A stretch of DNA of 64,000 bases, from positions 32,001 to 96,000 of the forward strand of contig JAVRCV020000007.1 of NCBI GenBank assembly GCA_034530615.2, written 5' to 3'. This document shows positions 13,456-38,653 of the stretch, in pieces; the first letter of the stretch is position 1; each line of letters begins with the position of its first letter. The notes under the pieces were generated by a model. It worked only from the letters and a program-made list of their open reading frames with translations. It was not told the origin of the DNA and ran no database searches. The position numbers and the translations under genes were made by a program. Source of the stretch: Aulosira sp. ZfuVER01 (GTDB lineage: Bacteria > Cyanobacteriota > Cyanobacteriia > Cyanobacteriales > Nostocaceae).

Positions 13456-13733
13456 ATGAATAGTACCGACAATTCCCCAATCGATTATAGGTCGTCAGAA
13501 GATGTGGTATCTGTGATAGAACTACAGCGCCAGCTTAATGAGTTACTCAAGCAATTATCGCCGGAGCGATTACAGGTGCTTACTGATTTTGCGGCTTACT
13601 TAGCAAATGCTGAAAGCGAAGCTGCAACCCAAGAAATTTAGCAATTCCTGGCTTACTAGAGCGAATTAAGCAAAATCAAGCAACCTCTAAAACCGATTAC
13701 ACAAACTGGAGAAATCTTCGCTCTGATGTATGA
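13456..13733 (+). pseudogene. Frameshifted antitoxin of a RelE-type pair
   Basis: ORF stops at 13641 (QEI*); restoring one base near 13637 continues as LAIPGLLERIKQNQATSKTDYTNWRNLRSDV* to 13733, overlapping the toxin ATG. Confidence 0.75.
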
Positions 13734-13989
13734 AGTTCTTCTGCATCCTGATGCCTAAAAGGTTTATATTAATGCTGACAAAGCCCTAGCGAAGAAAATT
13801 GCCCGATGTTTGCAGCAGCTAGAGCAAACTCCCCAGTCGCACCCCAACATCAAAGCTCTCAAGGGAGATTATGCAGGGTACTATCGTTACCGAATCGGGG
13901 ACTACAGGGTAATCTATTCGATAAACGATGAACTGATGCAAGTATTTGTTGTGGCGATCGCTCATCGCAGTGAAGCGTATCAGCCGTGA
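13726..13989 (+). pseudogene. relE: RelE/ParE-family toxin with premature stop
   Basis: MYEVLLHPDA*KVYIN...HPNIKALKGDYAGYYRYRIGDYRVIY...VVAIAHRSEAYQP*; TAA at 13756-13758; YRIGDYRVIY is the RelE signature. Confidence 0.85.
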
Positions 13990-14027
13990 AGATGAGTTTG
14001 TAAGAGCTATGCTAACAACTCTAAGAA

Positions 14028-14110
14028 GTGAGCGATCGCTTGAGGCGTGAAAGATTGGGAAGCGTTTTGTCTCCGTTTTAGGGAGAGTAACTCACGCAGA
14101 GACGCAGAGA
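14028..14110 (+). repeat. Direct repeat copy 2 (HIP1-headed), ending in ACGCAGAG octamers
   Basis: Matches 13279-13363. Confidence 0.85.
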
Positions 14111-14123
14111 CGCAGAGAGAAGA

Positions 14124-14348
14124 TTAGGAGAAGGCTAACCGTTGTTTAACCTCTTCCCAACTATAACCATTTGCGGGGTTTTTCTGGTAATTTTCTAAAC
14201 GTCGATCTAGTTCCTTTTGTTGCGCTTGACTTAAGGGAAGTTGCTCTTGCTGTTCTAAAATGCTGTTCCATAAATCTTCAGCAAGTTGGATACGTTCTGC
14301 AACGCTGAGTTCATAAATGTCAACTTTCAAGAGGGGATGGGAACTCAT
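14124..14348 (-). CDS. Putative addiction-module component (TIGR02574-type antitoxin), no adjacent toxin
   Basis: LSVAERIQLAEDLWNSI...ELDRRL...SWEEVKQRL. Confidence 0.85.
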   Translation of the reverse strand: MSSHPLLKVDIYELSVAERIQLAEDLWNSILEQQEQLPLSQAQQKELDRRLENYQKNPANGYSWEEVKQRLAFS

Positions 14349-14514
14349 GATGACAGAGTTAGAGTTTAGCTTTTACTCAATATTACAGCATTGCCGCTTG
14401 AGGTCGTGGGAAGGTGGTTGGCGCTCGCATAACCCTTTAGACAAGCAAATAATCTTTGTCGGTGATAGGTTGTCTTACAATATACACTAAACCTTGAATT
14501 TGCTCTCTTAGGCG

Positions 14515-14631
14515 ATGAATACTACAGATAATTTTCCACTGGAGGATAAACAGTCTGTGGTTTTGGTATCTGTGACAGAATTACAGCGACAGCTTAATGA
14601 CTTACTTCAGTAAGTATCGCTAGAGCGATTA
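14515..14631 (+). pseudogene. Truncated second copy of the 13456 antitoxin
   Basis: MNTTDNFPLEDKQSVVLVSVTELQRQLNDLLQ*VSLERL versus MNSTDNSPIDYRSSEDVVSVIELQRQLNELLKQLSPERL; the upstream region (14440-14514) also resembles 13381-13455. Confidence 0.8.
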
Positions 14632-14659
14632 ATGGTAGCCAAACTTATGGGAAAAGTGT

Positions 14660-16051
14660 ATGTCCAGTGAAAAGAAAAAGCCGGATAGCGAATTTGATAT
14701 TTTCATTGCTAACTCTGTTTATCCAGATGTCGCCCCCATATTTACATATAGTCCAAAGTCACTTGATACGATCAAAGACGACTGTTTTATAGTAATTGAT
14801 ACAAATGCATTGCTTGTCCCTTACAGTATTGGTAAGGAAAGCCTTGAACAAATTCAAATAACTTATGAAAAGCTTGTAGGTGAAAAAAGATTATTGATCC
14901 CAGCCCAAGTTGTAAGAGAGTTTGCCCGAAACAGAGCTAATAAGCTTACTGAACTATTTCAACAATTGAATCGCAAAAGAAATAACTCTCAAGGTTTACA
15001 AAAAGGTAAATATCCTTTACTGGAGTCCCTTCCAGAGTATCAAGAATCAGTACGACTTGAAGGTGAAATAGATAAATTATTGCATCAATATAGGGAATCA
15101 CTTGGCAAGGTGTTAGATCATGTCCGCAATTGGGCTTGGAATGATCCCGTTAGTATTTTATATAGTAAGCTTTTCACTCAAGATGTTGTTTTTGATTACA
15201 ATTTAGAAAAACCCTTTATACAAGATGATTTGAATCGGCGGCAGCTTCATAACTTGCCTCCGGGTTATAAGGATGCTGGAAAACAGGATGAAGGGATAGG
15301 AGATCTTCTCATATGGCATACCATACTTGAAATAGGTAGGACTCATAAAAAAAGTGTAATTTTTGTGTCAGGTGATGAAAAAGCAGACTGGTGGCATAGA
15401 AGTGAAAGCCAAGCTCTCTATCCACGATATGAATTAGTGGATGAGTTTCGTAGAAATTCTGAGGGGCAATCGTTCCATATTATTGCCTTCTCTCGACTTC
15501 TAAATCTTTATGGAGCTAGTGATAAAGTAGTTCAAGAAGTTCGCAAAGAAGAAGTTTTTACACGAGGGGATGAAATTAGATCTGCACAAGCTATCAGAAG
15601 TTCTTTTGACGAACTAATAAGAAAAGAGGTAGTAGCAGTATTAGCCATTCAAAGTTGGTTGAAAACTACTTATGCTATTAATGAGATATATGTAGGGACT
15701 GATCAACTTAGGTTTCTATTAAAAGATAGCCGTGTACCTGCCGATATAGCTTTTGTTGATGATTCACAAAATATTACAGCAGTGGAAGTAATGTTTATGG
15801 ATATTGACAGGGTTCAATCACCAACGCTGCGTATGAGATTAAGAGATAGAAGTCTTTCAGGCTATTACGCAGTCAGTGAAGGCAAGATAAGTACCTATAT
15901 GATTGTAGTTGTAGGAGATAGTGAAGAAACTGTTATTGAAGCAGCAACTAAGTTGGACAGGTCTAGTTCAAGGATTGCAAAAGTATCCTATATATTAGGA
16001 TATCTTGATCAAGATGGTGAGTTTCAAAAGGTATTTAGTGAAACAGACTAA
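14660..16051 (+). CDS. PIN-like (PIN_8/DUF4935-type) domain protein with extra C-terminal domain
   Basis: IVIDTNALL, EFARNR, PPGYKDAGK, GDLLIW and IFVSGDEKADWW motifs. Confidence 0.8.
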   Translation: MSSEKKKPDSEFDIFIANSVYPDVAPIFTYSPKSLDTIKDDCFIVIDTNALLVPYSIGKESLEQIQITYEKLVGEKRLLIPAQVVREFARNRANKLTELFQQLNRKRNNSQGLQKGKYPLLESLPEYQESVRLEGEIDKLLHQYRESLGKVLDHVRNWAWNDPVSILYSKLFTQDVVFDYNLEKPFIQDDLNRRQLHNLPPGYKDAGKQDEGIGDLLIWHTILEIGRTHKKSVIFVSGDEKADWWHRSESQALYPRYELVDEFRRNSEGQSFHIIAFSRLLNLYGASDKVVQEVRKEEVFTRGDEIRSAQAIRSSFDELIRKEVVAVLAIQSWLKTTYAINEIYVGTDQLRFLLKDSRVPADIAFVDDSQNITAVEVMFMDIDRVQSPTLRMRLRDRSLSGYYAVSEGKISTYMIVVVGDSEETVIEAATKLDRSSSRIAKVSYILGYLDQDGEFQKVFSETD

Positions 16052-16080: not shown

Positions 16081-16500
16081 ATGAACCAATTCAATTATAT
16101 TTTTAAACAAAATTTGAGGAATAAAATCAATAATCAAATTCTGGAGCATCCTTTTACAGATTATTGGGATATTTTTGTTCTTAAACATCAACATCCAATT
16201 AATATTTCTCTCCATATTGTAGGAATATTCTTTTTTTACGGATTGCTCTTTTCTGCTTGTAAGGTACAAAATTTCTGGTTACTCTTGGGCTTGCCATTAA
16301 CTCAGTTAATTGGATTAACTGGACATTTTTTATTTGAGCGTAGCTATATAGATTTACAAGATGCTGTGTTTTCTTGGCGGGCTTCTTACTGTTTAGGTCG
16401 AATGTTACTGAGGGTTGTAATGGGGAAATATCAAGATGACATTCGCCAACGCCAAGAGATATTAAATAATTATCAATCAAGTAAGTATGCAAATATTTAA
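16081..16500 (+). CDS. DUF962/Mpo1-like membrane protein
   Basis: HQHPINISLHIVG and QLIGLTGHFLFE His motifs with hydrophobic helices; overlaps the next gene's start. Confidence 0.75.
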   Translation: MNQFNYIFKQNLRNKINNQILEHPFTDYWDIFVLKHQHPINISLHIVGIFFFYGLLFSACKVQNFWLLLGLPLTQLIGLTGHFLFERSYIDLQDAVFSWRASYCLGRMLLRVVMGKYQDDIRQRQEILNNYQSSKYANI

Positions 16501-17515
16501 TAATTGGAATGTAGTTGCTAAGGGTTGGTATATTGCCTGTTCTAGTAACGACTTACCTAAAAGCAAAGCAAAATCTATAGAAATTTGCGGTCAAAGAATT
16601 GTCATCTTTCGGGGTGAAGATGGACTAGTACGTGCTTTAGATGCTTACTGTCCTCATTTGGGAACAGATTTAGGAATTGGACAGGTTGATGGTAATTGGA
16701 TTCGTTGTGCATTTCATCAATGGGCGTTTGATGAAACAGGATTATGCCAAAATATTCCCTGTCAATCAGAAATTCCGGCTAAAGCGAAAGTACAAGCTTA
16801 TGCAACAGCAGAAAAGTATGGGTTTATCTGGATTTATCCTGATGCGGTAGCGCCTGAAGGGGTGGCTGATTTTGATGAATTAAAGGGTAAAGAAATTATT
16901 GCACAACCTGATACGGCATTTGAAAGAAGTTGTCATCACCATATTTGTATGATGAATGGTATTGATGCCCAACATTTAAAAACAATTCATCGTTTAGATA
17001 TCAAAATGGATTTGTCGCTACATCGCAGCGAATTAGGTACACAAATTGACTTTACAATGCGGGGGCAATTTCCTCAAACAACTTGGCGAGAAAGGTTAGG
17101 GCAAAGATTTTTGGGTTCTACCTATGAGTATTCTATGCGCTATGCTCATGGTTGCATTGGCTTATTAACAATGATGAAAAAAGTGCGGCTTTTCCCACCG
17201 TTGCACATGATTTATGCTTACACTCCAATTGCGCCAGGAAGAACGCGCATTCAACCAATTTATGTATCAGAAAAACGTAAAGGAATTGGAGGATATTTGC
17301 TGAGTAAGTTTTTGCTAATCTGTACTCGGTTGGCTTACTATATGCTCAGAGATGAAGATGGCAAGATTTACGATAATATTCGCTTTAATACAAACTTACT
17401 CCTGAGTATTGATACGCCATTAGCTAAATATATGGAGTATGTAAATCAGTTAGAACCTTCTCGGTGGTCACAAAAGATAGTAAATGCTTTTACATCTGAG
17501 CATAGTGAAGCATAA
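16487..17515 (+). CDS. Rieske non-heme iron oxygenase (alpha subunit)
   Basis: CPHLG...CAFH Rieske ligands; NGIDAQHLKTIH mononuclear Fe motif; C-terminal DEDGKIY. Confidence 0.9.
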   Translation: MQIFNNWNVVAKGWYIACSSNDLPKSKAKSIEICGQRIVIFRGEDGLVRALDAYCPHLGTDLGIGQVDGNWIRCAFHQWAFDETGLCQNIPCQSEIPAKAKVQAYATAEKYGFIWIYPDAVAPEGVADFDELKGKEIIAQPDTAFERSCHHHICMMNGIDAQHLKTIHRLDIKMDLSLHRSELGTQIDFTMRGQFPQTTWRERLGQRFLGSTYEYSMRYAHGCIGLLTMMKKVRLFPPLHMIYAYTPIAPGRTRIQPIYVSEKRKGIGGYLLSKFLLICTRLAYYMLRDEDGKIYDNIRFNTNLLLSIDTPLAKYMEYVNQLEPSRWSQKIVNAFTSEHSEA

Positions 17516-17564
17516 CCCAACATTTAGAATTAGTGTTTATTGGGTTTACTAACGTAAATATACC

Positions 17565-17894
17565 CTAGAAGCGATCGCACTCTATTTCAATCTCTTGAAA
17601 GTCATAATAAATTGAGTCTTCTCTCGCAAAATTATCTTCATCTAAGTAAAGCAAATAATGTTGTTGATATTCGCTAAGAAATCTGTGTACTGCTGGCAAA
17701 ATCTGCTTGATTAGCCAAGGAGAACTTTCATCTGATGGTGGCTGCCAGTACTTTTCTGCATGAAAAACCTGCTCTGCTGAAATTCTTTCACCTTTATCAA
17801 TAATGCCAGGATTTTCCAGTAGCCAATAAGCCCATCGATATCCTGCATCAATATATTTTTTGCAGTCTAAACAAGCAAAATAGCAACAATTCAT
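17565..17894 (-). CDS. Hypothetical protein with N-terminal CxxC
   Basis: 109-aa ORF filling the gap, CLDC motif, plausible composition. Confidence 0.55.
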   Translation of the reverse strand: MNCCYFACLDCKKYIDAGYRWAYWLLENPGIIDKGERISAEQVFHAEKYWQPPSDESSPWLIKQILPAVHRFLSEYQQHYLLYLDEDNFAREDSIYYDFQEIEIECDRF

Positions 17895-17915
17895 AAAGTT
17901 AATAAAATTAAACTT

Positions 17916-17992
17916 TAGGGTGTATTATCACTTTAGTGCAATGCACCATCAAAAATTCAAGGTGCGTTAGCCTTTGGCATAACACACCCTAC
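17916..17992. repeat. Cyanobacterial REP-like palindromic element
   Basis: TAGGGTGTATTAT...ATAACACACCCTA outer arms and AATGCACC/GGTGCGTT inner arms; related half copy at 20814-20844. Confidence 0.7.
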
Positions 17993-18177
17993 TTTTAATG
18001 TCTAAATTCTTCTTCAATAACTACGGTTTGTCGAGTATCATTAAAGTACTAATAAGTAATAAGTATTGTAAATAACCATTCTGAGATCTGTCACATTACT
18101 CCGTAACAACACTAATTTGCTAGATAAAGTGTTAATACAAAACATCTATTAATCAGATTTTAGGTAAATTCCACATA

Positions 18178-18918
18178 ATGAAGAGTTGGCTGGTTCCTGT
18201 TCAAAAGCTGCAACCAAGCGATCGCATGGCCATGTATGCATTGCTAAATAATCACTTTAAAGGTGTAACCTGGGATGTATTCCAGGCGGATCTAAAGCGC
18301 AAAAACTGGGTGTTGTTGTTGAGAGAAGAAATAACTAATACGCTCAAAGGCTTTTCTACCCTGATGTTGTGTCAGACGAATTTTGCTGGAGAGAAGATTA
18401 CTGTAGTTTATTCTGGCGATACGATTGTCGATCCCAGTGCTTGGTCAAGTACAACACTACCGCGAACTTGGATAGCCGCAGTCAATTTTCTGCGCGAGTA
18501 TTATGCGAACGATAAAATGTACTGGCTGCTAATTTGCTCTGGTTTTCGTACCTATCGCTTTCTCCCTACATTTTGGCAAGAGTTTTACCCCCGCCATGAT
18601 GTAGCAACACCTGCGAATGTTGCGAATTTGATGGCAAATCTGGCACAGGAATACTATGGTGATGCTTACCAAGAAGCAACTGGTATCGTCCGCTTTCAAC
18701 ATCCGCAAATTCTGCGGGAAGGTTTAATAGAAATCCCCACAGGAAAACAAACTAATCCCCATATCCAATTTTTCGAGGAAAAAAACCCAGGCTATCAACT
18801 TGGTGATGAATTGGTTTGTTTAACTGAAATTCGGTATGAGAATCTCACCCGCGCTGGACAAAGAATGTGGCAGTCAGAATCGTTGTTAGAATTTGTGCAA
18901 GATTCTGTACCGATCTAA
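18178..18918 (+). CDS. Uncharacterised protein, probable GNAT-like acyltransferase fold
   Basis: LKGFSTL...VVYSGDTIVDPSAW...YWLLICSGFRTYRFLP pattern; C-terminal NPGYQLGDELVCL. Confidence 0.6.
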   Translation: MKSWLVPVQKLQPSDRMAMYALLNNHFKGVTWDVFQADLKRKNWVLLLREEITNTLKGFSTLMLCQTNFAGEKITVVYSGDTIVDPSAWSSTTLPRTWIAAVNFLREYYANDKMYWLLICSGFRTYRFLPTFWQEFYPRHDVATPANVANLMANLAQEYYGDAYQEATGIVRFQHPQILREGLIEIPTGKQTNPHIQFFEEKNPGYQLGDELVCLTEIRYENLTRAGQRMWQSESLLEFVQDSVPI

Positions 18919-18943
18919 AACCTATACGTCCATCAACTTGTGT

Positions 18944-20650
18944 ATGAGATTGAAAAACGACGAGATAGCAATACCTACTACCCTGGAAGCACCACAGCTT
19001 TTCAGTGTCAGTCGCTTGTTTAGTAACCTACGCGGCGATTTAGCGGGAGGACTGACAGCGGCGGTGGTAGCCTTACCTTTAGCATTAGCTTTTGCTGTGG
19101 CTAGTGGTGTGGAACCAAAGGCGGGACTATACACTGCTATTGTGGCAGGAATTGTTGCAGCAATCTTTGGGGGTTCGCCTGTACAGATTACAGGGCCTAC
19201 AGGTGCAATGGCTGTGATTTTGGTGGGAATTGTCGCTAAGTACGGCTTAGAGAAAGTTTGGATTGCTGGGGTAATAGCTGGGATAATCCAGATTGCTTTA
19301 GGGGTTGCTAAACTCGGGCAATTAGTCAAGTTTATTCCTTACCCGGTGACGGCAGGCTTTACTAATGGTATTGCCGTTATTATTTTTTGTGGTCAGTTAA
19401 ATAATTTCTTTGGCTTACAACTACCGCGTCAAGAACATTTTTTGCCGGGACTTTGGCAAAGTTTAACTCATCTAGAAGCGTTAAACTGGGCAGCTGTTGT
19501 ATTAGGAATGCTGGTGATTGCAACCAATATTTTATGGCCCAAGATTAACACTACAATACCAGGTTCTTTAATGGGGCTGGTGTTAGCAACAGCGATCGCA
19601 TCTTATTTACATCTTGATGTCCCCACAATTGGAGCCATTCCCCAAGCTTTACCGATGCTCCAAGGTATTCCCCACTGGAATGATTTTGGCTTGATTCGGG
19701 AACTGATTAATCCAGCTTTGGCTTTAGCAGCACTGGGAAGTATTGAATCGTTACTCTCAGCAGTTGTAGCTGATGGTATGACTGTGAGCGAGAAACACAA
19801 TAGCGATCGCGAATTAATTGGTCAAGGGTTAGCAAATATTATTATTCCATTTTTTGGTGGTATTCCAGCCACAGGTGCGATCGCGCGAACTGCTGTCAAT
19901 GTCCGTTCTGGCGGTAAAACCCGACTGTCTGGGGTAATTCATGGCGTTGCTTTAGCCATTATTGTGTTAACTTTAGCACCCCTAGCAGCGCAGATTCCCT
20001 TAGCAGCACTGGCTGGAATTTTGATGGTGGTTAGTCTGCGGATGATTGAGTGGGAAGCCATTGGCTTACTGCTACGTGCTACCTACTCCGACTTTGCGGT
20101 GATGATTCTCACCTGGTTAGTGACAATATTATTTGACTTGGTTCTCGCTGTTGAAGTGGGATTAATTGCAGCCGGAGCCTTATTTATCAAACGCATGAGC
20201 GATTTAAGCTTGGCGAAAATCCCGGAAACGGAAGTATTTCCCCCTGGTATTCCTCTGGAATTAAGCAAAGAAATTGCGGTGTATCGCGTAGATGGCCCCG
20301 TATTTTTTGGTGCTGCGGAAAGGTTTGTTACCTTTCTACGGGAGCAACCAGAAGTGAAGTATTTAATTCTGCGGTTGCGGTTTGTGCCCAATATGGATAC
20401 GACTGGATTAGTAGCTTTAGAGGATATTTATCACGACTTAGAACGGCATAATTGCCGCTTAATTCTCACAGGTTTACAACCCCAAGTTCAACAATTACTA
20501 GAACGCTCAGGATTGTTAAAAACGATTGGATTATCAAATTGTTTTGAAACAACAACAGATGCTATTTACTCTATAACTCCGCAATCTTCTCAACCTGTAG
20601 CAGCTAATTTTCCATCAAAAGAATTGATGGCATTAAATGATGAAAATTAA
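18944..20650 (+). CDS. SulP/SLC26 anion transporter with STAS domain
   Basis: GDLAGGLTAAVVALPLALAFA, GPTGA, ESLLSA, NSDRELIGQG, and STAS motifs GPVFFGAA and DTTG; ATG at 18944 preferred. Confidence 0.93.
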   Translation: MRLKNDEIAIPTTLEAPQLFSVSRLFSNLRGDLAGGLTAAVVALPLALAFAVASGVEPKAGLYTAIVAGIVAAIFGGSPVQITGPTGAMAVILVGIVAKYGLEKVWIAGVIAGIIQIALGVAKLGQLVKFIPYPVTAGFTNGIAVIIFCGQLNNFFGLQLPRQEHFLPGLWQSLTHLEALNWAAVVLGMLVIATNILWPKINTTIPGSLMGLVLATAIASYLHLDVPTIGAIPQALPMLQGIPHWNDFGLIRELINPALALAALGSIESLLSAVVADGMTVSEKHNSDRELIGQGLANIIIPFFGGIPATGAIARTAVNVRSGGKTRLSGVIHGVALAIIVLTLAPLAAQIPLAALAGILMVVSLRMIEWEAIGLLLRATYSDFAVMILTWLVTILFDLVLAVEVGLIAAGALFIKRMSDLSLAKIPETEVFPPGIPLELSKEIAVYRVDGPVFFGAAERFVTFLREQPEVKYLILRLRFVPNMDTTGLVALEDIYHDLERHNCRLILTGLQPQVQQLLERSGLLKTIGLSNCFETTTDAIYSITPQSSQPVAANFPSKELMALNDEN

Positions 20651-20921
20651 CCGCCGATTAAGGGGGATAAACGCCGATTAACGCAGATAAGTTGCGAAGT
20701 TAAAATGTAGCGGCATGACACAACTAAAGTTTGGCATTAGATTTATTGTTTAGAAAGCGCTAAAGCGCAACTACGAACATTTTCTATTGCATCATTTTAG
20801 TTGTGTCAGTGCAGTAGGGTGTGTTATCGCTTTAGCGTAACCCAGTATCAACAATTCTTTTAAATATAGATATTCCCAATTCAAACACGTTAAATACTTC
20901 TGGTAAAAAAGTATAAATTCT

Positions 20922-21977
20922 ATGCATTGTCCCAGCCCAAATTTAATCTTTAATAATCCGAGAAAATTTGTTGAGGGATGGTATTGGGCATTACCATCAC
21001 AAAAGTTAAAGATTGGCAAGGTGAAAGCTGTAACATTACTGGGTAGAAACCTAGCAATTTATCGGGGAGTCAGTGGCCAGGTGGTAGCGGTGGATGCTTA
21101 TTGTCCGCACATGGGCGCACATTTAGCTGAGGGTAAGGTAGAAGGTGATAGTATTCGCTGCTTTTTCCATAATTGGAAATATGATGAACGCGGAATTTGT
21201 ATAGACGTTCCTTCTCAAGGTAAACCTTTACCTGTATGTATCAAAACTTGGTCAACGGCAGAAAAATACGGCATGATTTGGGTGTGGGTAGGAGAAGAAA
21301 AGCCAAGTTCGCTACCTTTTGTCCCAGAATTAGAACAGGTAGACTGTGATTATGTATTGGGGACTCGGTTTATCAAAAACTGCCATCCCAATGTGTTGTT
21401 GATTAATGCGATTGATGCTCACCACTTTAATACAGTTCACAATCTACCTTTAGAAATTGTATTTGATTCCCAAGACTTCAACTCTCACGCTATTACATTC
21501 AGCAATACTACACGCGGTGGTGATGATTCCTGGTTAATCCGTCTGATTCGTCCCTTATACCGCAATGAAGTTACTTATAGTATGTGCTATTGGTATGGCA
21601 GCACTGGTACTGTCACACTAGGGCCAGATTTTCTGCACTTTTACATCATATTTGCGCTGCGAATGACCGAAGGTGGCAAAACCGAAGGGCAAACAATTTT
21701 AGTGACTCCCAAGCGACATGGATATTTAGGATGGGGTGTCAATCGCGCTTTACTGTGGTTAACGCAGCAGGTTGGTAATTACTTCGCTAAAGGCGATACG
21801 CAAGTATTTCAGACAATTCAGTTTGATTTGAAGACACCCACCAAAGCAGATCAATCGATTCTGCAATTTATCCAGCACGTTAATTGCCAAAAAGCCTTAA
21901 GTTGGGGAACCTGGGAAGTTGTTGATAATCCAGAAAAGAGCGATCGCTCTTCTTCATCTACCTCTGTAATGTTTTAG
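20922..21977 (+). CDS. Rieske non-heme iron oxygenase (alpha subunit)
   Basis: CPHMG...CFFH; NAIDAHHFNTVH; GDTQVF. Confidence 0.9.
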   Translation: MHCPSPNLIFNNPRKFVEGWYWALPSQKLKIGKVKAVTLLGRNLAIYRGVSGQVVAVDAYCPHMGAHLAEGKVEGDSIRCFFHNWKYDERGICIDVPSQGKPLPVCIKTWSTAEKYGMIWVWVGEEKPSSLPFVPELEQVDCDYVLGTRFIKNCHPNVLLINAIDAHHFNTVHNLPLEIVFDSQDFNSHAITFSNTTRGGDDSWLIRLIRPLYRNEVTYSMCYWYGSTGTVTLGPDFLHFYIIFALRMTEGGKTEGQTILVTPKRHGYLGWGVNRALLWLTQQVGNYFAKGDTQVFQTIQFDLKTPTKADQSILQFIQHVNCQKALSWGTWEVVDNPEKSDRSSSSTSVMF

Positions 21978-21978
21978 C

Positions 21979-22887
21979 ATGACTAACATATATAACATTG
22001 CCGGACTCGACCTGCCGCACGCAGCCCCCGATAACCGATTGCGACGTATACTCAAAGCAGCATTGCCAAATCACAGCAATAATTCTCCGCAGCAGCAATC
22101 AGATTATTGGGATGCGAAATTTTTCAACTTGCATCAAGTCCAAATCTTTCAACAAGCAAGTATAGCCGAACAATCTGCCATACTTGGACTTACTAATCGC
22201 AGCCTGTTAGAGGAATCTTATTTTATTGAGAAAGTAGGCATTGGCTATATGGCAAAGATGGTACTGTTAGCAGAAACAGTTGAGGAGCGAATGCTCTATG
22301 CAATGTTTAGCGCTGATGAAGCTACCCACCTCAACCAAATAACCAATTTTTTACCAGAATCAGAACCAACTAACAGCAACGATCCATTTCTGAGTTTACT
22401 AGCCCAAGTTGTTGAAAGTGCAGACAAAACAGTATTGTTATTTGTGCTTCAGGTAGTACTAGAAGGATGGGGTTTAAGCCATTACCGACGCCTAGCCAAA
22501 GAATGCCACAATCCAGTCTTGGCAGAAGTGTTCGCCAGTTTCCTACACGCAGAAGCACGCCATCACGGTACAGGAACCACCTTATTTAACCAAAATCCAG
22601 TTTCAGCTGACAGCCAAGCAACCATCCTTGATGTGTTGGCAAAATTTCTGTTTATGGTGCAAGTGGGGCCGCAAAACGTCTTATCAGCCATTGAACAAAT
22701 CAAAGGACATCTGACGCGATCGCAAAAAATCCAAATCCTCGAACAATTAGACACCCAAACCCATAGTGGAACCAGATTACAAATATTGCGATCGCTCATA
22801 CAACCAACATCAGCAAAAACCATCCTCCAAACCCTAGATGAACAAGGAGCCTTTGCACCCCTCCCCCCTCATCAATGCGTATATTAA
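21979..22887 (+). CDS. Ferritin-like diiron-carboxylate protein
   Basis: E (YFIEK), DEATH, E (VVLEGWG), AEARH give the canonical E/ExxH/E/ExxH four-helix ligand set; starts 1 bp after the Rieske stop. Confidence 0.85.
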   Translation: MTNIYNIAGLDLPHAAPDNRLRRILKAALPNHSNNSPQQQSDYWDAKFFNLHQVQIFQQASIAEQSAILGLTNRSLLEESYFIEKVGIGYMAKMVLLAETVEERMLYAMFSADEATHLNQITNFLPESEPTNSNDPFLSLLAQVVESADKTVLLFVLQVVLEGWGLSHYRRLAKECHNPVLAEVFASFLHAEARHHGTGTTLFNQNPVSADSQATILDVLAKFLFMVQVGPQNVLSAIEQIKGHLTRSQKIQILEQLDTQTHSGTRLQILRSLIQPTSAKTILQTLDEQGAFAPLPPHQCVY

Positions 22888-22913
22888 AAATTCACAGATA
22901 CCTCTAATCAAAC

Positions 22914-23008
22914 CTCTGCGTCACTTTGTCTTGAAAAGTTTCCTACGCCGGGAAACCCGGCTTCGAGGAACTTTTCGCTGCGTAAACCTCCGCGCCACTC
23001 TGCGTTAA
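22914..23008. repeat. Small dispersed repeat hairpin within CTCTGCGT-type repeats
   Basis: GAAAAGTTTCC...GCCGGG-AAA-CCCGGC...GGAACTTTTC nested stem flanked by ctctgcgt units. Confidence 0.6.
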
Positions 23009-23022
23009 AAATAAAATCTTTT

Positions 23023-24201
23023 ATGGAAACTACTACATCCAAACTATCAGATAACCCAACTACCTATCGCAAACTACAAATTAACCACACCCGCAACAAA
23101 CAGCAGGATCATACCGCTTTAATGGATGAAGCAACCGCCAAATTCCACTACAAAGATTGCCAAAACGAATATTGGAACCCCGAAGAATTTTCCCTACTTT
23201 ACGGTACACCTTTATGGGAGCAATCCAGCCAACACCAGCGCATTATCTTAAACCAACTTTACTGGGTAGCATACTACTCACAAATCGTTTCCGCCGAGAT
23301 TGCAACCATCTATTTTAATCAAACTAGTGCAGCCGGACTTTACGCTCAAGAAGACTTTCGCTTAATTTGCGATACCTTAGATTTAGAATCCTCGCAAGAA
23401 CGGGCGCACATTAACGCCTTTCGCACAATTGCCAAACAAGTTGAGCAAGCATTATTTGGGGAACTCATATTCACTTACCCCATGCGCGGCCCCTTTACCG
23501 AAACGATGGTTTATGCCGATACTAACGCCTTAAAAACTTGGTGGAAAAAGATTCAATTACAATACTTTGGCTTGATTTCTGCAAATAATACCTTTTTGGC
23601 TTGTCAATATTTCACAGTCCGAGGAGTGCGGACACTCAATGGCAAATTAGTACAGCACAAACTCAGCAATTATTATCAAAAGCATCCTCATCAAAATACT
23701 ACTCCAATTCCTGCCAAAATCTCTTACTATCACTTTTTGGATGAAAGCTTTCACTTCAATAGTTCGACAATTTTATCTCACGATGTTGTCACTTGCCTTC
23801 CTACACCAACTGCATTTGAACGACTAGTTGCTAATTTAGGATTGCTAGGATGTCAGCGCGATCACTTTCACTTTTCATCGGCAATTAACGGGATTTTTTG
23901 GTACGATCCAGCGCTATATTCTCAGATTTATCGCGTGCTGATATCGCCCATTTTTGCTATGAGCGACAAGGATGCTAAAGAAATGATCCGCCGCTGTTTT
24001 ACAGAAGAGTCAGAAGGGCTGCATCGTAGCTTTTTAACTCATCAAGAAGCAATGGCGTCTTATAAAGTGTATGTGGAAAAACTCGATTACCTTTGGCATA
24101 GGAATCGAGAAATGTCACTCATGGCGTATAATTCAATTCCTCAATATTTGGCGACTCAACAAAAAGCTTTTCAACGTTTTAAACAGCAGGTTCAAGTATA
24201 A
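23023..24201 (+). CDS. AurF/CylC-like dimetal-carboxylate enzyme (possible halogenase)
   Basis: YW.PEEFSLLYGTPLW, YWVAYY...SAEIAT..FNQ, LESSQERAH and YHFLDESFH motifs. Confidence 0.75.
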   Translation: METTTSKLSDNPTTYRKLQINHTRNKQQDHTALMDEATAKFHYKDCQNEYWNPEEFSLLYGTPLWEQSSQHQRIILNQLYWVAYYSQIVSAEIATIYFNQTSAAGLYAQEDFRLICDTLDLESSQERAHINAFRTIAKQVEQALFGELIFTYPMRGPFTETMVYADTNALKTWWKKIQLQYFGLISANNTFLACQYFTVRGVRTLNGKLVQHKLSNYYQKHPHQNTTPIPAKISYYHFLDESFHFNSSTILSHDVVTCLPTPTAFERLVANLGLLGCQRDHFHFSSAINGIFWYDPALYSQIYRVLISPIFAMSDKDAKEMIRRCFTEESEGLHRSFLTHQEAMASYKVYVEKLDYLWHRNREMSLMAYNSIPQYLATQQKAFQRFKQQVQV

Positions 24202-24702: not shown

Positions 24703-25596
24703 ATGTCTCGCACACTAAATGCCATAGAGCAAGCTCAAAACCATCCCTTACATTCCCTAGAAGAATGGGAACAAGACTTACTCAATCGCTATCCCGATCC
24801 AGAAAGCATAGTTAAAGAAGGTAAGGCTAGCGCAGAGTACAGAAATTATGAAACTACTACTAGAGATACTGTTAAAGAATTTTATCGATTAAATCATATT
24901 AATCAAACCTATGATTTCGTATTAAAGAAAGAAGAAGATTTTTCTAAGTTTGATAAGAAAGAAATGTCAATTTGGGATGCTTTGGAATTTTTGAATCAAT
25001 TAGTAGATGATTCAGATCCAGATACAGACTTAGACCAATTACAACACTTGTTACAAACATCAGAAGCTATTCGTGCTGATGGTCATCCTGACTGGATGGT
25101 ACTTACCGGCTTTTTCCATGATATGGGGAAAGTACTTTGTCTGTTTGGTGAACCTCAATGGGCGACTGTAGGCGATACCTATCCTGTAGGTTGTGCATTC
25201 TCTGACAAAATTGTTTTCTCGGAATTTTTTCAAGAGAATCCGGATTACAATAACCCAAAATATAACACTAAATATGGTGTTTATCAGTCGAATTGTGGAT
25301 TGAGTAATGTACATATGTCATGGGGACATGATGAGTATTTTTATCGCATCATGAAACCCTATTTACCTGAACCTGCATTGTACATCCTCCGCTATCACTC
25401 ATTTTATCCGCAACATCGAGAAAATGCATACGAACATTTGATGGATGAACGCGATCGCGAAATGTTTAAGTGGGTGAAGTTATTCAATCCCTACGATTTG
25501 TATTCTAAAAATCCTAATCCTCCAGATTGGCAACAACTCAAGCCATTCTATGAAGATTTAGTGGCTAAATATTTACCCCCGACCATCAAATTCTAA
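24703..25596 (+). CDS. hrmE: Inositol oxygenase (MIOX, HD-fold diiron), HrmE-like
   Basis: H..QT.DFV, VDDSDPDTD...HLLQTSE, HDMGK, QWATVGDTYPVGC, SWGHDEY, RYHSFYP and FNPYDLYSK motifs; context upstream of frt genes. Confidence 0.88.
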   Translation: MSRTLNAIEQAQNHPLHSLEEWEQDLLNRYPDPESIVKEGKASAEYRNYETTTRDTVKEFYRLNHINQTYDFVLKKEEDFSKFDKKEMSIWDALEFLNQLVDDSDPDTDLDQLQHLLQTSEAIRADGHPDWMVLTGFFHDMGKVLCLFGEPQWATVGDTYPVGCAFSDKIVFSEFFQENPDYNNPKYNTKYGVYQSNCGLSNVHMSWGHDEYFYRIMKPYLPEPALYILRYHSFYPQHRENAYEHLMDERDREMFKWVKLFNPYDLYSKNPNPPDWQQLKPFYEDLVAKYLPPTIKF

Positions 25597-26527
25597 AGCT
25601 TCAATAGTAACAAAGGTAAGGGTCAGAACACTACACACACATCATATTTAATAGAGCTTGTTGTGCATCATGTTTAAAAGTGATTGAGCAAGCTTAAATC
25701 AGGTGAAGTGTTTCCAAAACTGAACTGCGTCTTGGCAAAGGTAAACTTATAAAACGAGTGTGTAGATGTGCTGGCGCAACAATTAGTCCACAAGTTTTGT
25801 ATTTAGCGCTATTTTATTACGTTAGGTAGAGGAAAATCATAAATTTTTGTAATATTAACCTCTGGAATAGCGATAACAACTTCTGTTAACCAGCATAATT
25901 GGCTCAAGCCGGAAAACAATACGGCAGGCTTTTCAGGCAAATTGCTGTACTTATTATACATGAACATGTCTGTTATTTCTGTTTAATACTTTACGGTTGT
26001 TCAATAATAATGAGCAAACAGCTTACTTGCAAAAATCTAGAATTGTCAATCGAATATTTACCTACCATGCTGTTAACTTTTATGAATGTGTCTGAAAGTG
26101 TGGGGATGAATTTAGTTAAACTGATAAATAAGCTTAAATCTGCTTATATATCAGCGATACCTCTCTAGAAATAGAGAAATAAAATACTCTTATTCCTTGA
26201 GGAAAAGTGTTTTGAGAAAAGAGGTTTATTTTGGCTGGCTTACAAAATAAACGCATAAAACTCGTCTTTATTCACATACTTTCAAATACAGATCACAAAA
26301 AAATGTAAAGATTTGAAGGATTTGAAAGAGTCTAGTTTTGCTTTAAATCCCAAAAAATTTATTTAGTGGAACTCTGAGAAATAACTCAAATCAAGTTAAA
26401 ACACAACAGATTTGAGCAGAGTTTAACTCTCAAAAGTTAGCAGTGCCACTAACTTAGGTCTGAAGTCTTCAGGCCTAGTAGATATTGTGGTGACATTGCA
26501 GATATTTAAATGCGTTTTTGGATATAG

Positions 26528-27541
26528 ATGAATATGAAGAGAATGGCGATCGCAGTTAGCATCTTAGGTTTAATCAGTGGTACTGTTGTTGGTTGCTCAA
26601 ATGGCACTGACAACGACAACGCTGCTACTAACACTGATACCAATACTGCTATCAACACTAGCGCCCACAGTACAGAGAACGGGAAATTACGAACCATTGG
26701 TGTTAGCCTGGGTGACTTAGGTAATCCTTTTTATGTAGCAGTGCAGAAAGGCGCTGAGAGACAAGCCAAGAAAATAGGGAATGGTATCAGAGTTAATTCG
26801 GTTTCCAGTGGCTTTGACCTCAACCAACAAACTAACCAAATCGAAAATTTCACCGCCGCGAATACTGACCTAATTATCCTCAGTGCGGTGGACAAAAAAG
26901 GCGTCAAACCAGCAATCGACCAAGCCAGAAAAGCAGGTAGGGTTGTGGTTGCGGTAGATTCAGCCGTTGATGCAGATGTGGATGCAATGATTAGCTCCAA
27001 CAATACCCAAGCTGGAGAGGTTGCTTGCAAATATATAGGCGATCGCCTTAAAGGTCAAGGTAATGTAGTCATCCTCAACGGTACGCAGATGGACTCCATA
27101 GTCCAGCGCGTTGAAGGCTGTATGACTTCATTGTCCAAATATCCGGGAATCAAAATCCTCTCTAAAGATCAGAATGCAGAAGGGACAAGGGATGGCGGAC
27201 TCAGAGTTATGACAGACTTGCTCACAACCTTTCCCAAGATTGATGCGGTTTTTGCCACTAACGATCAGAGTGGGGTAGGCGCAGATTTAGCCGCCAAGCA
27301 AGCAAGACGCAAAGAATTTTTTATTGTTGGGGTTGACGGTTCGCCAGATGCAACCAAAGCAATGGAAGACAAAGATGGTGTATTTGCGGCAACTGCTGCT
27401 CAAAATCCAGCAGGGATGGCTGAACAAGCGGTTCAAGTTGGTAACGATGTCATCCAAGGCAAAAAACTGAGTAATCCCAACATTCTGGTTCCAGTCAAGT
27501 TAGTCACCCGTGAGAACCTTAGCAGCTATCAAGGCTGGTAG
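26528..27541 (+). CDS. frtA1: Sugar ABC transporter periplasmic binding lipoprotein (FrtA1-like)
   Basis: Lipobox VVGC, RbsB-type NPFY, NDQSG and VGVDGS motifs; locus context. Confidence 0.85.
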   Translation: MNMKRMAIAVSILGLISGTVVGCSNGTDNDNAATNTDTNTAINTSAHSTENGKLRTIGVSLGDLGNPFYVAVQKGAERQAKKIGNGIRVNSVSSGFDLNQQTNQIENFTAANTDLIILSAVDKKGVKPAIDQARKAGRVVVAVDSAVDADVDAMISSNNTQAGEVACKYIGDRLKGQGNVVILNGTQMDSIVQRVEGCMTSLSKYPGIKILSKDQNAEGTRDGGLRVMTDLLTTFPKIDAVFATNDQSGVGADLAAKQARRKEFFIVGVDGSPDATKAMEDKDGVFAATAAQNPAGMAEQAVQVGNDVIQGKKLSNPNILVPVKLVTRENLSSYQGW

Positions 27542-36259: not shown

Positions 36260-37282
36260 TTAAACCCAGAATGTTACCTTAACTGATTGATTCGGCAATA
36301 ATCTTGGATCTTCTCCACGAGAAATTGCGGCGTGAATTGACTCGACAAATATATGAATAGTATCCGCAGGTGTATTAGAAAATTGATTTCCGTATTTTGC
36401 GATCGCTTCACCCTGAATACCTAAAATTTCAATGTCCTGTCTGATAATATGTTGAGCAGTCCAGCGCACAAACGGACGTGCTAGCTTATTCCAGATGCCG
36501 TAGTTGTAGGTAACATCTGTGTAAACCAAAGTAGAATTCTCGGTTTCTGGGATAGATTGACTGGTAATGAACAAATGGCGATTGCGTCCCATTTGATATT
36601 CCACAGAGGTAATATTGGGCATATAAAAGCGATCCCTATGTTTAATTTCAGCACCTTGACGATTGAGAAACCGACTATACCATCCCAAATTACTAGTTTC
36701 GTTGCGATACTCCACCACAACAGCACCATTTTCTCGTTCTACAGTCATCTCTAACTTTTGTTGGCGGGAGTTACGGAACACACCAGGATGCACAAAAGCT
36801 GTGTGGGGAATATCAATAAAATTCTCTGCACAATTGGTAACGTTATTCGCAAAACGGTTAATTACCCGCACCGTCTCCCAGCCTGGTTTTCCATAATAAG
36901 GCATAGAAAAGGGTGCAAACTCTTCACTTGGCGTGTCAGCTAACCGCACATATATATAACCATCTTGTTCTTTGATAGCGTAACGCTTTGCTTGACGCTG
37001 CTGGGAAGGTTTGAAATCATCTCCCTCAGCCGGAACAGCAATTACTTTACCATCGCCATCGTATACCCAACCATGATAAGGACATTGCAAAGCACCCTTA
37101 CAGACTTTACCAGGTGACAGACGGCTATTGCGATGCAAACAGCGATCGCGCAACGCCACAGCTTGTCCATCTTCACCACGAAATATTGCTAACCACTCTC
37201 CTAAAACAGTTCTTGCTAGTAGAGTGTTAGGTCTCAGTTGTTCACTGAGTGCGACAATATACCAAAAATCTGCAAATTGCAT
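36260..37282 (-). CDS. Rieske non-heme iron oxygenase (VanA-like architecture)
   Basis: CLHRN...CPYHGW; ENFIDIPHTAFVH; RQDIEIL. Confidence 0.9.
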   Translation of the reverse strand: MQFADFWYIVALSEQLRPNTLLARTVLGEWLAIFRGEDGQAVALRDRCLHRNSRLSPGKVCKGALQCPYHGWVYDGDGKVIAVPAEGDDFKPSQQRQAKRYAIKEQDGYIYVRLADTPSEEFAPFSMPYYGKPGWETVRVINRFANNVTNCAENFIDIPHTAFVHPGVFRNSRQQKLEMTVERENGAVVVEYRNETSNLGWYSRFLNRQGAEIKHRDRFYMPNITSVEYQMGRNRHLFITSQSIPETENSTLVYTDVTYNYGIWNKLARPFVRWTAQHIIRQDIEILGIQGEAIAKYGNQFSNTPADTIHIFVESIHAAISRGEDPRLLPNQSVKVTFWV

Positions 37283-37453: not shown

Positions 37454-37744
37454 TTATCGTTCCAATCTGCGAATTTCGACATTAGCTGTAAGGTCAAGCT
37501 GACAGGCTAATCGTGCATGGGGATAAGTAGGAGCTAATGTATCAAGCATTTCTCGTTCATCGGGTTGGGGGGGAGGAATTTCACCAATAACCTCAACTAA
37601 GCAAGTTCCACAAATACCAGTCCGACAACCAAACAATACAGGTGAATTCTGAATAGTAAGTTGTTCAGATAAATTTTGATGAGGTTGTAAACTTATTGGT
37701 AGATAATCAGTTTCGGGAAAAGATATATTACAAAATTCAGACAT
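37454..37744 (-). CDS. 2Fe-2S ferredoxin
   Basis: FGCRTGICGTC...RLACQ; start MSEFCNISF at 37744. Confidence 0.88.
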   Translation of the reverse strand: MSEFCNISFPETDYLPISLQPHQNLSEQLTIQNSPVLFGCRTGICGTCLVEVIGEIPPPQPDEREMLDTLAPTYPHARLACQLDLTANVEIRRLER

Positions 37745-38042
37745 ATATAAACAATCAGTACGCAGTTTATGATGGCTACTTCTCATTTATTTTAAATATA
37801 AAAAATGCATGGTCAATCTAGCAGATGCGATCGCAATCCTTGACTTATCAAACCCAGAATAAAGTCTTTTGATTTGGTATAAATTTTTGAAAAGCGATCG
37901 CCTGACTGTCACATACCCTGCCTCAAAATAATAGCAAGAATTCAAGTTAAAATCTGCACAGCATTAATCATTAATACTCTACAAATTCAGCTTTAGCGCT
38001 CCCTGCTCTCCTATTTTTTCACTTACACGCTTGATTCTTTAA

Positions 38043-38237
38043 TCAAACATCAACATTTATCTGTTCTATCTGTCTAGCAGCTTTCTCCCAACGCTTTGCG
38101 GAAGTTTCATCCTGCCAATGAGTTCTCATATTTTCTGCTTTTTTGTGACATATTCGCTCTAACATTTCTAAGATTGCGGATAATGTCAATTTGTCAATTA
38201 ATTCTTCTAAAATTTCCATATATTCTTTGTGCATCAT
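38043..38237 (-). CDS. Small helical hypothetical protein
   Basis: MMHKEYMEILEELIDKLTLSAILEMLERICHKKAEN...WEKAARQI; amphipathic helices. Confidence 0.6.
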   Translation of the reverse strand: MMHKEYMEILEELIDKLTLSAILEMLERICHKKAENMRTHWQDETSAKRWEKAARQIEQINVDV

Positions 38238-38653
38238 ATTTCTATCCTTAAGTTTCGTTGATAGATTCTGCCAAATGTGATGTAAATAAATGGCTGGTAG
38301 ATTCTCCAATAATTGATTAAGATTTGTTGCCCATACTTACCAATATTCTATACTTCTTATACATACAGTTTAGCCTATTTTGAATACTCAAATTTGAAAA
38401 TTTATTTTTAATAGATGGAAAAGCAAAAATACCACTTCCAACTATTAGAATATCTCAATCTACTTATCTTGACAAAAAGATAAGAATTCAGCACCCAAGA
38501 GTCAGCAGCCAGAATTTAAAGCTAATCTAGAAGATAGTAAATTGATTCATCAAATATTTCTCCTCATTCTTGAACCCTGCTGCCTTCTTAAAAGGCTTGC
38601 AGGCTGTGGGTGCTTAATAAATATTGACACAGGTATTACTTGGACAATGTCTT

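Follow-up and report, generated by a model that had tools for sequence, protein, structure and literature searches.

Gene clusters containing homologues of the diiron halogenase CylC were surveyed in 2021 (Eusebio et al. 2021, PMC8406957), and the most common type in that survey, as its main text gives it, is a "Rieske-containing" class (n=36) without known product. The locus described here, in Aulosira sp. ZfuVER01, belongs to this class. As far as the survey's main text characterizes the class, both have a single CylC homologue, 2–4 Rieske proteins, a sterol-desaturase-family gene, acyltransferases, no nearby carrier protein, and a host in the Nostocales; here, the GNAT fold is encoded in the locus and the sterol-desaturase-family gene is non-contiguous, on contig C8. 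Calothrix brevissima NIES-22, a strain in Table S4 of the survey, has the same gene order and 90% identity. In contrast to the class, our locus is split over contigs C7 (two blocks), C8, and C83 and carries an inserted SulP gene, and GH3, GNAT, amidohydrolase, and Mpo1 proteins are not mentioned for the class in the main text.

A second description is found in a 2014 ferredoxin review, reportedly by Cassier-Chauvat and Chauvat. The passage on "cluster f" around fed6 (PMC4284462) proposes no function and gives the order hypothetical-Rieske-hypothetical-hypothetical-fed6-Rieske-sterol desaturase-hypothetical, which matches GNAT-RieskeB-ferritin-CylC-Fdx-RieskeC-hydroxylase-hexapeptide; unlike cluster f, the present locus has its ferredoxin and Rieske C genes inverted and 12–14 kb away from the main block. 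The cluster type is already catalogued in cyanobacteria, and this locus is another member. The preliminary description of this DNA had pointed to the orphan class correctly, and our search of the literature, mostly outside subscription journals, found neither a characterized product nor a GH3 link for it.

Two characterized systems are close in single enzymes. OlsH of Singulisphaera acidiphila is a bacterial GH3 protein that uses free fatty acid and ATP to make N-acyl-ornithine without an ACP (PMC12493201). OlsI is its pathway partner, whereas here the GH3 is only distantly related (30.7 bits against a cut-off of 620 for the OlsH profile, NCBIfam NF052613), GNAT-fold and membrane hexapeptide proteins are present, and five soluble iron oxygenases are added. 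The diiron halogenases CylC and NocO (PMC12101540) share the QExxH and HxxDExxH motifs and the six predicted iron ligands of the CylC-like enzyme, which differs in having Gln211 for CylC E283/NocO E252 and no ACP or FAAL partner.

Organization of the locus

The window, i.e. the whole 64,000-nucleotide stretch analyzed, is part of contig C7. ORF calls confirmed the seven plus-strand genes of the preliminary description between 16081 and 24201, with Pfam or fold families as it had stated, and both of its tight couplings hold: a 14-bp overlap at 16487 and a 1-bp gap at 21979 (Table 1). It had missed the ferredoxin and third Rieske genes of the same window. The 662-bp gap between the Rieske A and GNAT-fold genes holds an antisense ORF that interrupts the plus-strand run. 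The SulP ORF was called at 18893–20650; the ATG at 18944 gives 568 aa, matching relatives. Because the CylC-like gene is present in 14 of 14 same-genus genomes (88–92% identity) with the same neighbors, the locus is not a chance assembly. Promoter and terminator scans of the locus gave 17 and 6 hits against shuffled expectations of 22.5 and 8.2, respectively.

Table 1. Features of the window, with strand and main evidence
Feature	Position	Strand	Evidence and remarks
Mpo1-like (DUF962) His-rich membrane protein	16081..16500	+	Pfam PF06127, E 9e-9
Rieske oxygenase A	16487..17515	+	Pfam Rieske; intact ligands; 57/80 related loci
109-aa antisense ORF	17565..17894	-	Outside the conserved cluster; in 1/20 fetched loci; no Pfam match over cut-off
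GNAT-fold protein, predicted acyltransferase	18178..18918	+	Structure model; constant GH3 partner
SulP-STAS anion transporter, accessory insertion	18944..20650	+	Pfam Sulfate_transp and STAS
Rieske oxygenase B	20922..21977	+	Pfam Rieske; intact; 68/80 related loci
Ferritin-like diiron protein	21979..22887	+	Pfam Ferritin_2, E 5e-6; 73/80 related loci
CylC homologue, Rieske/PriA clade	23023..24201	+	Pfam AurF, E 1e-4, below cut-off
Rieske oxygenase C, displaced and inverted cluster member	36260..37282	-	Pfam Rieske and VanA_C; 64/80 related loci
Predicted electron donor, a [2Fe-2S] ferredoxin whose context suggests Fed6 type; displaced and inverted	37463..37750	-	70/80 related loci
68–71 aa hypothetical protein, marker of the inverted block	38046..38252	-	Between CylC-like and ferredoxin genes in several relatives

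The conserved cluster is larger than these seven genes, which form its front half; it has roughly a dozen members and is split here through rearrangement. Genes for a membrane fatty-acid hydroxylase, a hexapeptide-repeat acyltransferase-like protein, and a GH3 protein all lie on contig C8, and an amidohydrolase gene lies on C83. The guess that partners are encoded elsewhere was thus correct, and the genome-wide search it had proposed did yield the GH3. The earlier statement that no scaffold-building gene is present stands for the window and fails for the genome: the GH3, an acyl-adenylate/amide ligase, is a core member, and the system is not ligase-free. No carrier-protein or FAAL Pfam family was detected among the 36 window ORFs scanned, tblastn with a single ACP query found no ACP-like match in 80 related loci or on C7, and one query for adenylation domains found just one across the 80 loci.

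Rieske C is 86% identical to the gene that follows the ferredoxin in one related locus (L032). The apparent inversion may also be a mis-assembly; a repeat-mediated inversion was rejected, as the two junction regions share no inverted repeat longer than 9 bp. That the genes are still intact after scattering over three contigs suggests continued selection.

Conservation and co-occurrence

In cyanobacteria the canonical order is GNAT-RieskeB-ferritin-CylC-(RieskeA)-ferredoxin-RieskeC-hydroxylase-hexapeptide-GH3, and the run CylC-ferredoxin-RieskeC-hydroxylase-hexapeptide-GH3 recurs in loci titled Acidobacteriota, Planctomycetota, and Elusimicrobia, with parts of the gene set also in loci titled Myxococcota and Bdellovibrionota. 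Among 46 full-length loci, all contain the ferredoxin and 29 have a GH3 gene within 10 kb. The cluster genes co-occur in other genomes both across the 80 related loci and in a 121-genome sample of the phylum. In that sample, whose members are kin so that the counts are not independent events, the CylC clade was found in 10 genomes, GH3 in 13, and the GNAT-like protein in 15; GH3 accompanies the CylC clade in 10 of 10 genomes (at most ~7 kb away in six of the nine other than this one), and the GNAT-like protein is present in all 13 GH3-positive genomes. Of 41 relatives, 20 carry a close GH3 (at least 54% identity over the main match), and the CylC clade is found in exactly these 20; the GH3 is in two pieces in one of them (G016), and another (G039) has only GH3 fragments and no CylC. 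Four loci have GNAT and GH3 together without CylC. Recurrent accessory genes are of lipid type (PAP2, alpha/beta hydrolase, SDR), and in genome G123 a fatty-acid desaturase gene lies directly upstream.

SulP, presented earlier as a cluster member, proved to be accessory: it is found in 11 of 19 near-kin loci versus 6 of the 80 wider related loci, one of these a fragment only. It is single copy in this genome and scores below the DauA, sulP, and BicA profile cut-offs. A role in supplying sulfate or chloride for a chlorosulfolipid was rejected, since SulP is not core and no sulfotransferase is among the recurring neighbors.

The iron enzymes

Rieske A and B, described as intact, indeed retain the [2Fe-2S] ligands and the mononuclear-iron His/His/Asp. 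The closest solved relative of Rieske B is KshA (E 7e-25, N-terminal half only), and the best named match of the Rieske proteins is the 4beta-methylsterol monooxygenase SdmA (E 1e-18 to 1e-22, far below cut-off). In the ferritin-like protein a 2-His/4-Glu site (E84, E114, H117, E162, E192, H195) is invariant in 70 of 70 sequences. VIA-align scores for its model (pLDDT 92.2) were tied among ADO (Z 16.1), RNR R2 (16.0), MMO (15.8), and AurF (15.3), with CmlI likewise among the ties, and do not separate these families; Foldseek returned nothing at E≤0.001.

The CylC-like enzyme, the single such match in this genome, keeps eight of the nine CylC active-site residues (E92, Q125, E126, H129, H237, D240, E241, and H244, invariant in 80 of 80 sequences), and the ninth, the second-sphere Glu, is Gln211, again in 80 of 80. 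No solved structure matched it by sequence. In a quick IQ-TREE tree its nearest rows are C. brevissima NIES-22 and Mojavia pulchra, and the Rieske/PriA clade that contains them (23 rows, SH-aLRT 100) is deeply apart from all other sampled CylC homologues, with ~31–36% identity between our protein and the other homologues found. All 23 rows of this clade have Gln, and the 23 other CylC-like rows all have Glu. The NocO variant E252A loses chlorination, and a subset of CylC-type enzymes with Gln at this position has been noted (PMC12101540). As the clade carries Gln where NocO needs Glu, halogenation is unproven, and we regard chlorination by this enzyme as a minority prospect on its sequence. 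Oxidation, the other part of the earlier proposal of a heavily oxidizing, possibly halogenating lipid or acyl pathway, fits the full gene set.

Candidates for acyl activation, transfer, and turnover

The GH3 has three domains over cut-off (PF03321, PF23571, and PF23572). Across 42 sequences, nucleotide-binding motifs I and III show conservation, and motif II is divergent with an invariant Thr-Glu; 10 of 10 solved matches are plant GH3 acyl-amido synthetases. The GNAT-fold protein lacks a Pfam match, and its model (pLDDT 91.9) shows a GNAT fold. All its Foldseek and VIA-align matches are GNAT proteins (best Z 12.6; LasI and RpaI tied within ~1 Z of the best; FeeM 10.7), and this search does not separate acetyl-CoA from acyl-ACP types. 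The C8 hydroxylase matches PF04116 and best, among NCBIfam profiles, OlsE (NF052566; 64.9 bits versus a cut-off of 475); the hexapeptide protein best matches, far below cut-off, the amide-forming terminal domain of Pls/PosA.

The Mpo1-like protein (PF06127 over cut-off) has H36, H45, and H82 invariant in 32 of 32 sequences and is the putative half of an optional amidohydrolase-Mpo1 module. Both proteins occur in the identical 7 of 121 sampled genomes, fused or at most 3 kb apart in all six other genomes with the pair, and the fusion was seen in 5 of the 80 loci and in genomes G066 and G101. The closest solved relatives of the amidohydrolase are de-N-acetylases and N-acyl-D-amino-acid deacylases.

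Proposed pathway and alternatives

The gene set, its co-inheritance, the folds, and the preserved motifs for metals and nucleotides are observations, from which we infer the following steps. In the manner of OlsH, the GH3 would adenylate a free fatty acid with ATP and couple it to an amino acid or amine, and the GNAT-fold and/or membrane hexapeptide-repeat protein would attach a further acyl group. The dedicated ferredoxin would supply electrons to the three Rieske and two diiron enzymes, which together with the membrane fatty-acid hydroxylase would hydroxylate or desaturate the product; the CylC-like enzyme may also chlorinate, with the minority chance given above. Cleavage of the amide and shortening of a 2-hydroxy acyl chain would fall to the optional amidohydrolase-Mpo1 pair, in turnover rather than synthesis. 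The chances for and against this reading, in which a GH3 amidates free fatty acid carrier-free, iron enzymes oxidize the amide, and the amidohydrolase-Mpo1 pair turns it over, appear to us about evenly balanced. Against it, the GH3 is distant from OlsH with a divergent motif II, alpha/beta hydrolases are present in a minority of loci only, and no OlsI-like gene is core. To our knowledge, five soluble oxygenases exceed the number in any known amino-lipid pathway. Further, a 2026 review (PMC12971839) states that no ornithine lipids have yet been identified from cyanobacteria.

A further point against this reading comes from Synechocystis 6803. Its genes sll0263–66 and sll0225, which we take to be the counterparts on the basis of locus tags and gene order, show no induction under phosphate limitation (fold changes 1.29, 0.50, 0.86, and 1.15, and 1.35, respectively), as those of a typical phosphate-sparing amino lipid would, and a phosphate-sparing membrane lipid is unsupported by these data; ssl2559 rose 2.8-fold (p 0.047), which the source paper ascribes to the upstream PhoB-controlled sll1291 cluster. 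An essential lipid was rejected, as fed6, termed essential in 2014, was fully deleted in 2022, and no CylC-like or ferredoxin match was obtained in G031, a complete genome from the genus to which G123 belongs. A sphingolipid was rejected too, with no serine palmitoyltransferase-like gene among the recurring neighbors.

Among the alternatives, a secreted or signaling secondary metabolite, with the CylC-like enzyme performing carrier-free chlorination as the key step and the GH3 being just a tether or final coupling enzyme, is unlikely yet survives best. The invariant CylC residues, among them the halogenase-type QExxH and every one of the six predicted iron ligands, are consistent with it, the proposed halide site would stay open with Gln211, and near kin carry the inserted anion transporter; against this stand the loss of chlorination in NocO E252A, the deep separation of the clade, the 74 of 80 loci without SulP, and the lack of any halogenated product tied to the class. 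It is rather less probable that the oxygenases produce an acid from a hopanoid/sterol-like or aromatic ring compound and that the GH3 conjugates this acid to an amino acid as in plants. The closest solved or named Rieske relatives (KshA, SdmA, and SxtT) act on rings, which also counts against the amide-lipid reading, the hydroxylase family includes sterol desaturases, and jasmonate, auxin, and benzoates are the compounds conjugated by solved relatives of the GH3. However, the SdmA and KshA matches are mostly confined to the generic Rieske domain, the Mpo1, PAP2, desaturase, and acyltransferase neighbors indicate acyl chains, and no terpene or aromatic biosynthesis gene is found in neighbor families of at least 3 of the 80 loci.

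We consider a catabolic or detoxifying set for external amide lipids (deacylase, alpha-oxidation, and several oxygenases) very improbable: the amidohydrolase and Mpo1-like protein are degradative by family and Rieske oxygenases are commonly catabolic, but of the 10 genomes with the cluster 3 lack this pair, whereas the ATP-dependent ligase and GNAT are in 10 of 10. Least probable is N-oxygenation of the free amine of an N-acyl diamino acid to a hydroxylamine, nitro, or N-N product, for which a GH3 product such as N-acyl-ornithine would bear the amine and the Pfam AurF match is weak (21.9 bits, cut-off 29.6), because the D135 and E196 positions of the 3-His/4-carboxylate site of AurF are both Gln here, making an AurF-type N-oxygenase unlikely, and the protein clusters with CylC homologues apart from distant AurF-like rows.

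Significance

This copy adds little beyond the persistence of intact genes despite their scatter. In its boldest form, which we think improbable, the amide-lipid reading would make the cluster a route, carrier-free and shared across phyla, to a chlorinated or polyoxygenated amide lipid not described before: a two-gene GH3 and GNAT core would make the amide, the Gln-type CylC clade would be the first diiron halogenase to act on a free small molecule (or would catalyze a new diiron reaction), and the fused deacylase-Mpo1 would recycle the amide, paralleling eukaryotic ceramidase and alpha-oxidation. For the Rieske-containing class as a whole, a GH3 that probably activates the acyl group accounts for the missing ACP and FAAL, and naming it makes possible an initial assay with no more than fatty acid, ATP, and a panel of amines. 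If real, a CylC-like enzyme free of a carrier protein would be a useful biocatalyst, as the main text of the 2021 survey also states (PMC8406957).

Organization of the cluster in the Aulosira genome

The preliminary description placed seven co-oriented genes in the window, and all were found as plus-strand open reading frames at 16081-24201 with the tight couplings that it claimed: the Mpo1-like and RieskeA genes overlap by 14 bp, and 1 bp separates RieskeB from the ferritin-like gene. The remaining gaps measure 662 bp before the GNAT-like gene (with an antisense open reading frame of 109 aa inside), 271 bp before RieskeB and 135 bp before the CylC-like gene, and the likely start of SulP is 18944, with the GNAT-like gene ending just upstream. 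Family scans likewise recovered the Mpo1-like, two Rieske, SulP-STAS and Ferritin_2 labels, with an AurF match below threshold for the CylC-like protein, and every metal ligand is conserved in all families (21-80 homologues per family). The 246-aa GNAT-like protein (3251 homologues out of 3719 candidates) gave no match in family scans; its label was borne out by a model (pLDDT 91.9) whose structural matches were GNAT proteins only. In the ferritin-like protein a 2-His/4-Glu site is invariant, the fold is tied among ADO, R2, MMO and AurF, and Atlas leads include acyl-ACP desaturase clusters. On the Mpo1 side, a flank held by the amidohydrolase in relatives is occupied by several small toxin-antitoxin-like open reading frames, one apparently broken, and by a PIN_8 nuclease gene (463 aa) ending 29 bp ahead of the Mpo1-like gene. 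Beyond these lie two genes labelled by eye, one for a secreted protein of DUF11/calcium-binding-repeat-like type and one for a protein resembling filamentous haemagglutinin; downstream of the latter is a CHAT-TPR gene (CHAT from family scan).

It had also been suggested that partners are encoded elsewhere in the genome, and these were located as a tight GH3-containing run on contig C8 and an amidohydrolase on contig C83. The ferredoxin and RieskeC genes lie in the window itself, past a myo-inositol-oxygenase and sugar-uptake block. In genome G003 RieskeC already adjoins the sugar block in a different location, and the order in G011 and G013 is CylC, ferredoxin, then RieskeC; a single inversion of ~14 kb could explain the order in Aulosira. 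We take the sugar block to match the hrmE-frt-oprB-glcP block of symbiotic Nostoc, and four genes 2-8 kb upstream of the C8 run are presumably hrmU/I/R/K, so that both halves of the cluster would adjoin parts of the hrm locus. Immediately before the hydroxylase on C8 is a 463-aa PlsC-family acyltransferase, which was not found in any of 80 related loci. A stand-alone RieskeB paralogue (58%) on contig C33 keeps its [2Fe-2S] ligands, but two of its mononuclear-iron ligands are gone (Gln in place of His, Asn in place of Asp); it is possibly a non-catalytic Rieske protein.

Features of the cluster and its surroundings (L051, L052 and L071 are fetched loci with their own coordinates)
Feature	Position	Strand	Source
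Ferredoxin	window 37463-37750	-	search of the Aulosira genome
RieskeC	window 36260-37282	-	search of the Aulosira genome
Hydroxylase, hexapeptide protein, GH3 (tight run)	C8:68343-71303		search of the Aulosira genome
Amidohydrolase	C83:48424-50121		search of the Aulosira genome
Myo-inositol oxygenase, two sugar-binding proteins, ABC ATPase, permease, OprB porin, sugar transporter, aldose epimerase	window 24703-36221		
SDR, uronate-isomerase-like, LacI regulator, gluconokinase-like	L051:446-6113 (C8)		
PlsC-family acyltransferase	L051:6795-8186 (C8)		
RieskeB paralogue	L052:8505-9617 (C33)		
Toxin-antitoxin-like open reading frames, PIN_8 gene region	window 13400-16051		
DUF11/calcium-binding-repeat-like protein	window 10099-12468		
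Filamentous-haemagglutinin-like protein	window 6562-10068		
PAP2-like-GH3 fusion (Elusimicrobia)	L071:14054-16396		

Membership of a published class

The Rieske-containing class of CylC-homologue clusters mentioned in the preliminary description was traced to Eusebio et al. 2021 (PMC8406957), the available portion of which defines 36 such clusters, with one CylC homologue, 2-4 Rieske proteins and mostly a sterol desaturase, without a carrier and without a known product. In a quick tree of 52 rows, picked by hand and grouped according to how closely they resemble the window protein and independently of the Glu/Gln residue counted below, the CylC-like protein fell within a 23-row clade (SH-aLRT 100), its neighbour (90%) coming from Calothrix brevissima NIES-22, the strain of Table S4 in that paper. 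"Cluster f" around the ferredoxin gene fed6, as described in the accessible part of PMC4284462, is the same cassette. Literature searches found no product for the class, and the 2021 supplement may already show GH3; a term search of the available text of a 2026 cyanobacterial survey (10.64898/2026.09.06.749771) returned no mention of Rieske or GH3.

The cluster run continues beyond the CylC-like gene in 19 near-kin loci and in 80 of 261 wider loci, 14 of the loci carrying non-cyanobacterial titles. Within 10 kb of that gene, counts per 80 loci (many of which end at contig ends; counts for the 46 full-length loci in brackets) were ferritin-like 73 (46), ferredoxin 70 (46), RieskeB 68 (45), RieskeC 64 (42), RieskeA 57 (39), fatty-acid hydroxylase 56 (39), GNAT 54 (39), hexapeptide-repeat protein 50 (35), GH3 41 (29), Mpo1 31 (24), amidohydrolase 22 (17) and SulP 6 (5). 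The fetched stretch of L044 (genome G009) has no ferritin-like open reading frame or GNAT-like gene beside the CylC-like gene, and in L039 (G016) RieskeB and GH3 are each in two pieces, possibly through decay or assembly error. In an Elusimicrobia locus, GH3 is fused behind a membrane domain identified by eye as PAP2-like.

Genome G123 has the order desaturase-GNAT-Rieske-ferritin-CylC-large signalling protein-PriA, the last being what we take to be PriA, and from this order and locus tags we mapped the presumed Synechocystis 6803 counterparts. In the available data of PMC11126600, these presumed counterparts have transcript counts in replete growth and were not induced by phosphate limitation, which counts against the amide-lipid reading set out below. 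In other reports, sll0266 drops on iron deprivation (PMC3516471), PMC4284462 and PMC8887894 contradict each other on the essentiality of fed6, and a 2026 preprint (10.64898/2026.04.08.717189) has it as non-essential and of low abundance.

Co-inheritance of the cluster genes

The co-occurrence in other genomes on which the preliminary description made its cluster depend was present both among relatives and across the phylum. The CylC clade (at least 67% identity) occurs in 20 of 41 relatives, and exactly these 20 also carry a close GH3, albeit in two pieces in G016. G039 has GH3 fragments only, and weaker GH3 matches occur in 8 further genomes. In an even phylum sample of 121 genomes, the CylC clade (E<=1e-60) was found in 10, GH3 (E<=1e-40) in 13 including all 10, and the GNAT-like gene (E<=1e-10) in 15 including all 13, whereas the amidohydrolase and the Mpo1-like gene share an identical 7, all within the 10. 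The sampled genomes are kin, not independent events, and therefore we give no p-value. Amidohydrolase and Mpo1 are fused in 7 loci; in three Acidobacteriota loci, separate PAP2_3 genes flank the fusion.

Four loci carry GNAT and GH3 together without CylC, alongside other tailoring genes (B12 radical SAM, desaturase, another GNAT). These loci (L140-L143, from G050, G132, G103 and G066) make up an orphan-cluster sister family, in which the accompanying genes are an RnfD-like/UnbV fusion, another gene of GNAT type, a desaturase or twin genes for B12 radical SAM proteins. Because of these loci and the co-inheritance counts, GNAT and GH3 are the constant core, the oxygenases are the tailoring set of the CylC-clade family, amidohydrolase and Mpo1 are an optional module, and SulP is a local addition.

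Predicted chemistry

The available part of PMC12101540 lists nine conserved residues, of which the sole variable one, Glu at CylC 283/NocO 252, is Gln in a small subset; the E252A variant of NocO retained iron and lost chlorination. The window CylC-like protein has 8 of the nine, with Gln211 at the variable position, which was identified by aligning homologues and from the distance to the Asp that follows. Gln occupies this position in 80/80 clade members and Glu in 23/23 other CylC-like rows. Gln211 could keep the hydrogen bond and an open halide site, or mark another reaction; the enzyme seems unlikely to chlorinate.

The earlier claim that no scaffold-building gene is present is right for the window, but the GH3 on C8 belongs to the cluster. 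Searches of the 80 related loci with one query each gave no ACP-like match and a single adenylation domain. This GH3 has all three Pfam domains and motifs I and III, with a divergent motif II, and its profile search of solved structures found plant GH3 only. OlsH, a bacterial GH3, uses ATP and Mg to convert free fatty acid into N-acyl-ornithine (PMC12493201, available in part). OlsH-type chemistry needs no ACP or FAAL, in keeping with their absence; the cluster GH3 falls outside OlsH membership in a family scan. As a point against, ornithine lipids are unreported for cyanobacteria in the accessible text of PMC12971839. For the hexapeptide protein, 2-3 membrane segments are predicted and the best match is the Pls/PosA terminal domain, and the nearest relatives of the amidohydrolase are de-N-acetylases and N-acyl-D-amino-acid deacylases. 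Mpo1 alpha-oxidises 2-hydroxy fatty acids, according to its Pfam description. Because of the GH3, OlsH, amidohydrolase, Mpo1 and diiron evidence, we favour, at about even chances, a cluster that makes an amide and oxidises it repeatedly, with turnover as an option: GH3 would form an amide from free fatty acid and ATP with no carrier, the iron enzymes would oxidise it several times, and amidohydrolase and Mpo1 may turn it over.

Overall, the locus, intact although fragmented, is a genuine member of an orphan class already known, to which the present analysis adds the negative phosphate result, the exact co-occurrence of amidohydrolase and Mpo1, and the reunited gene set of the Aulosira genome.
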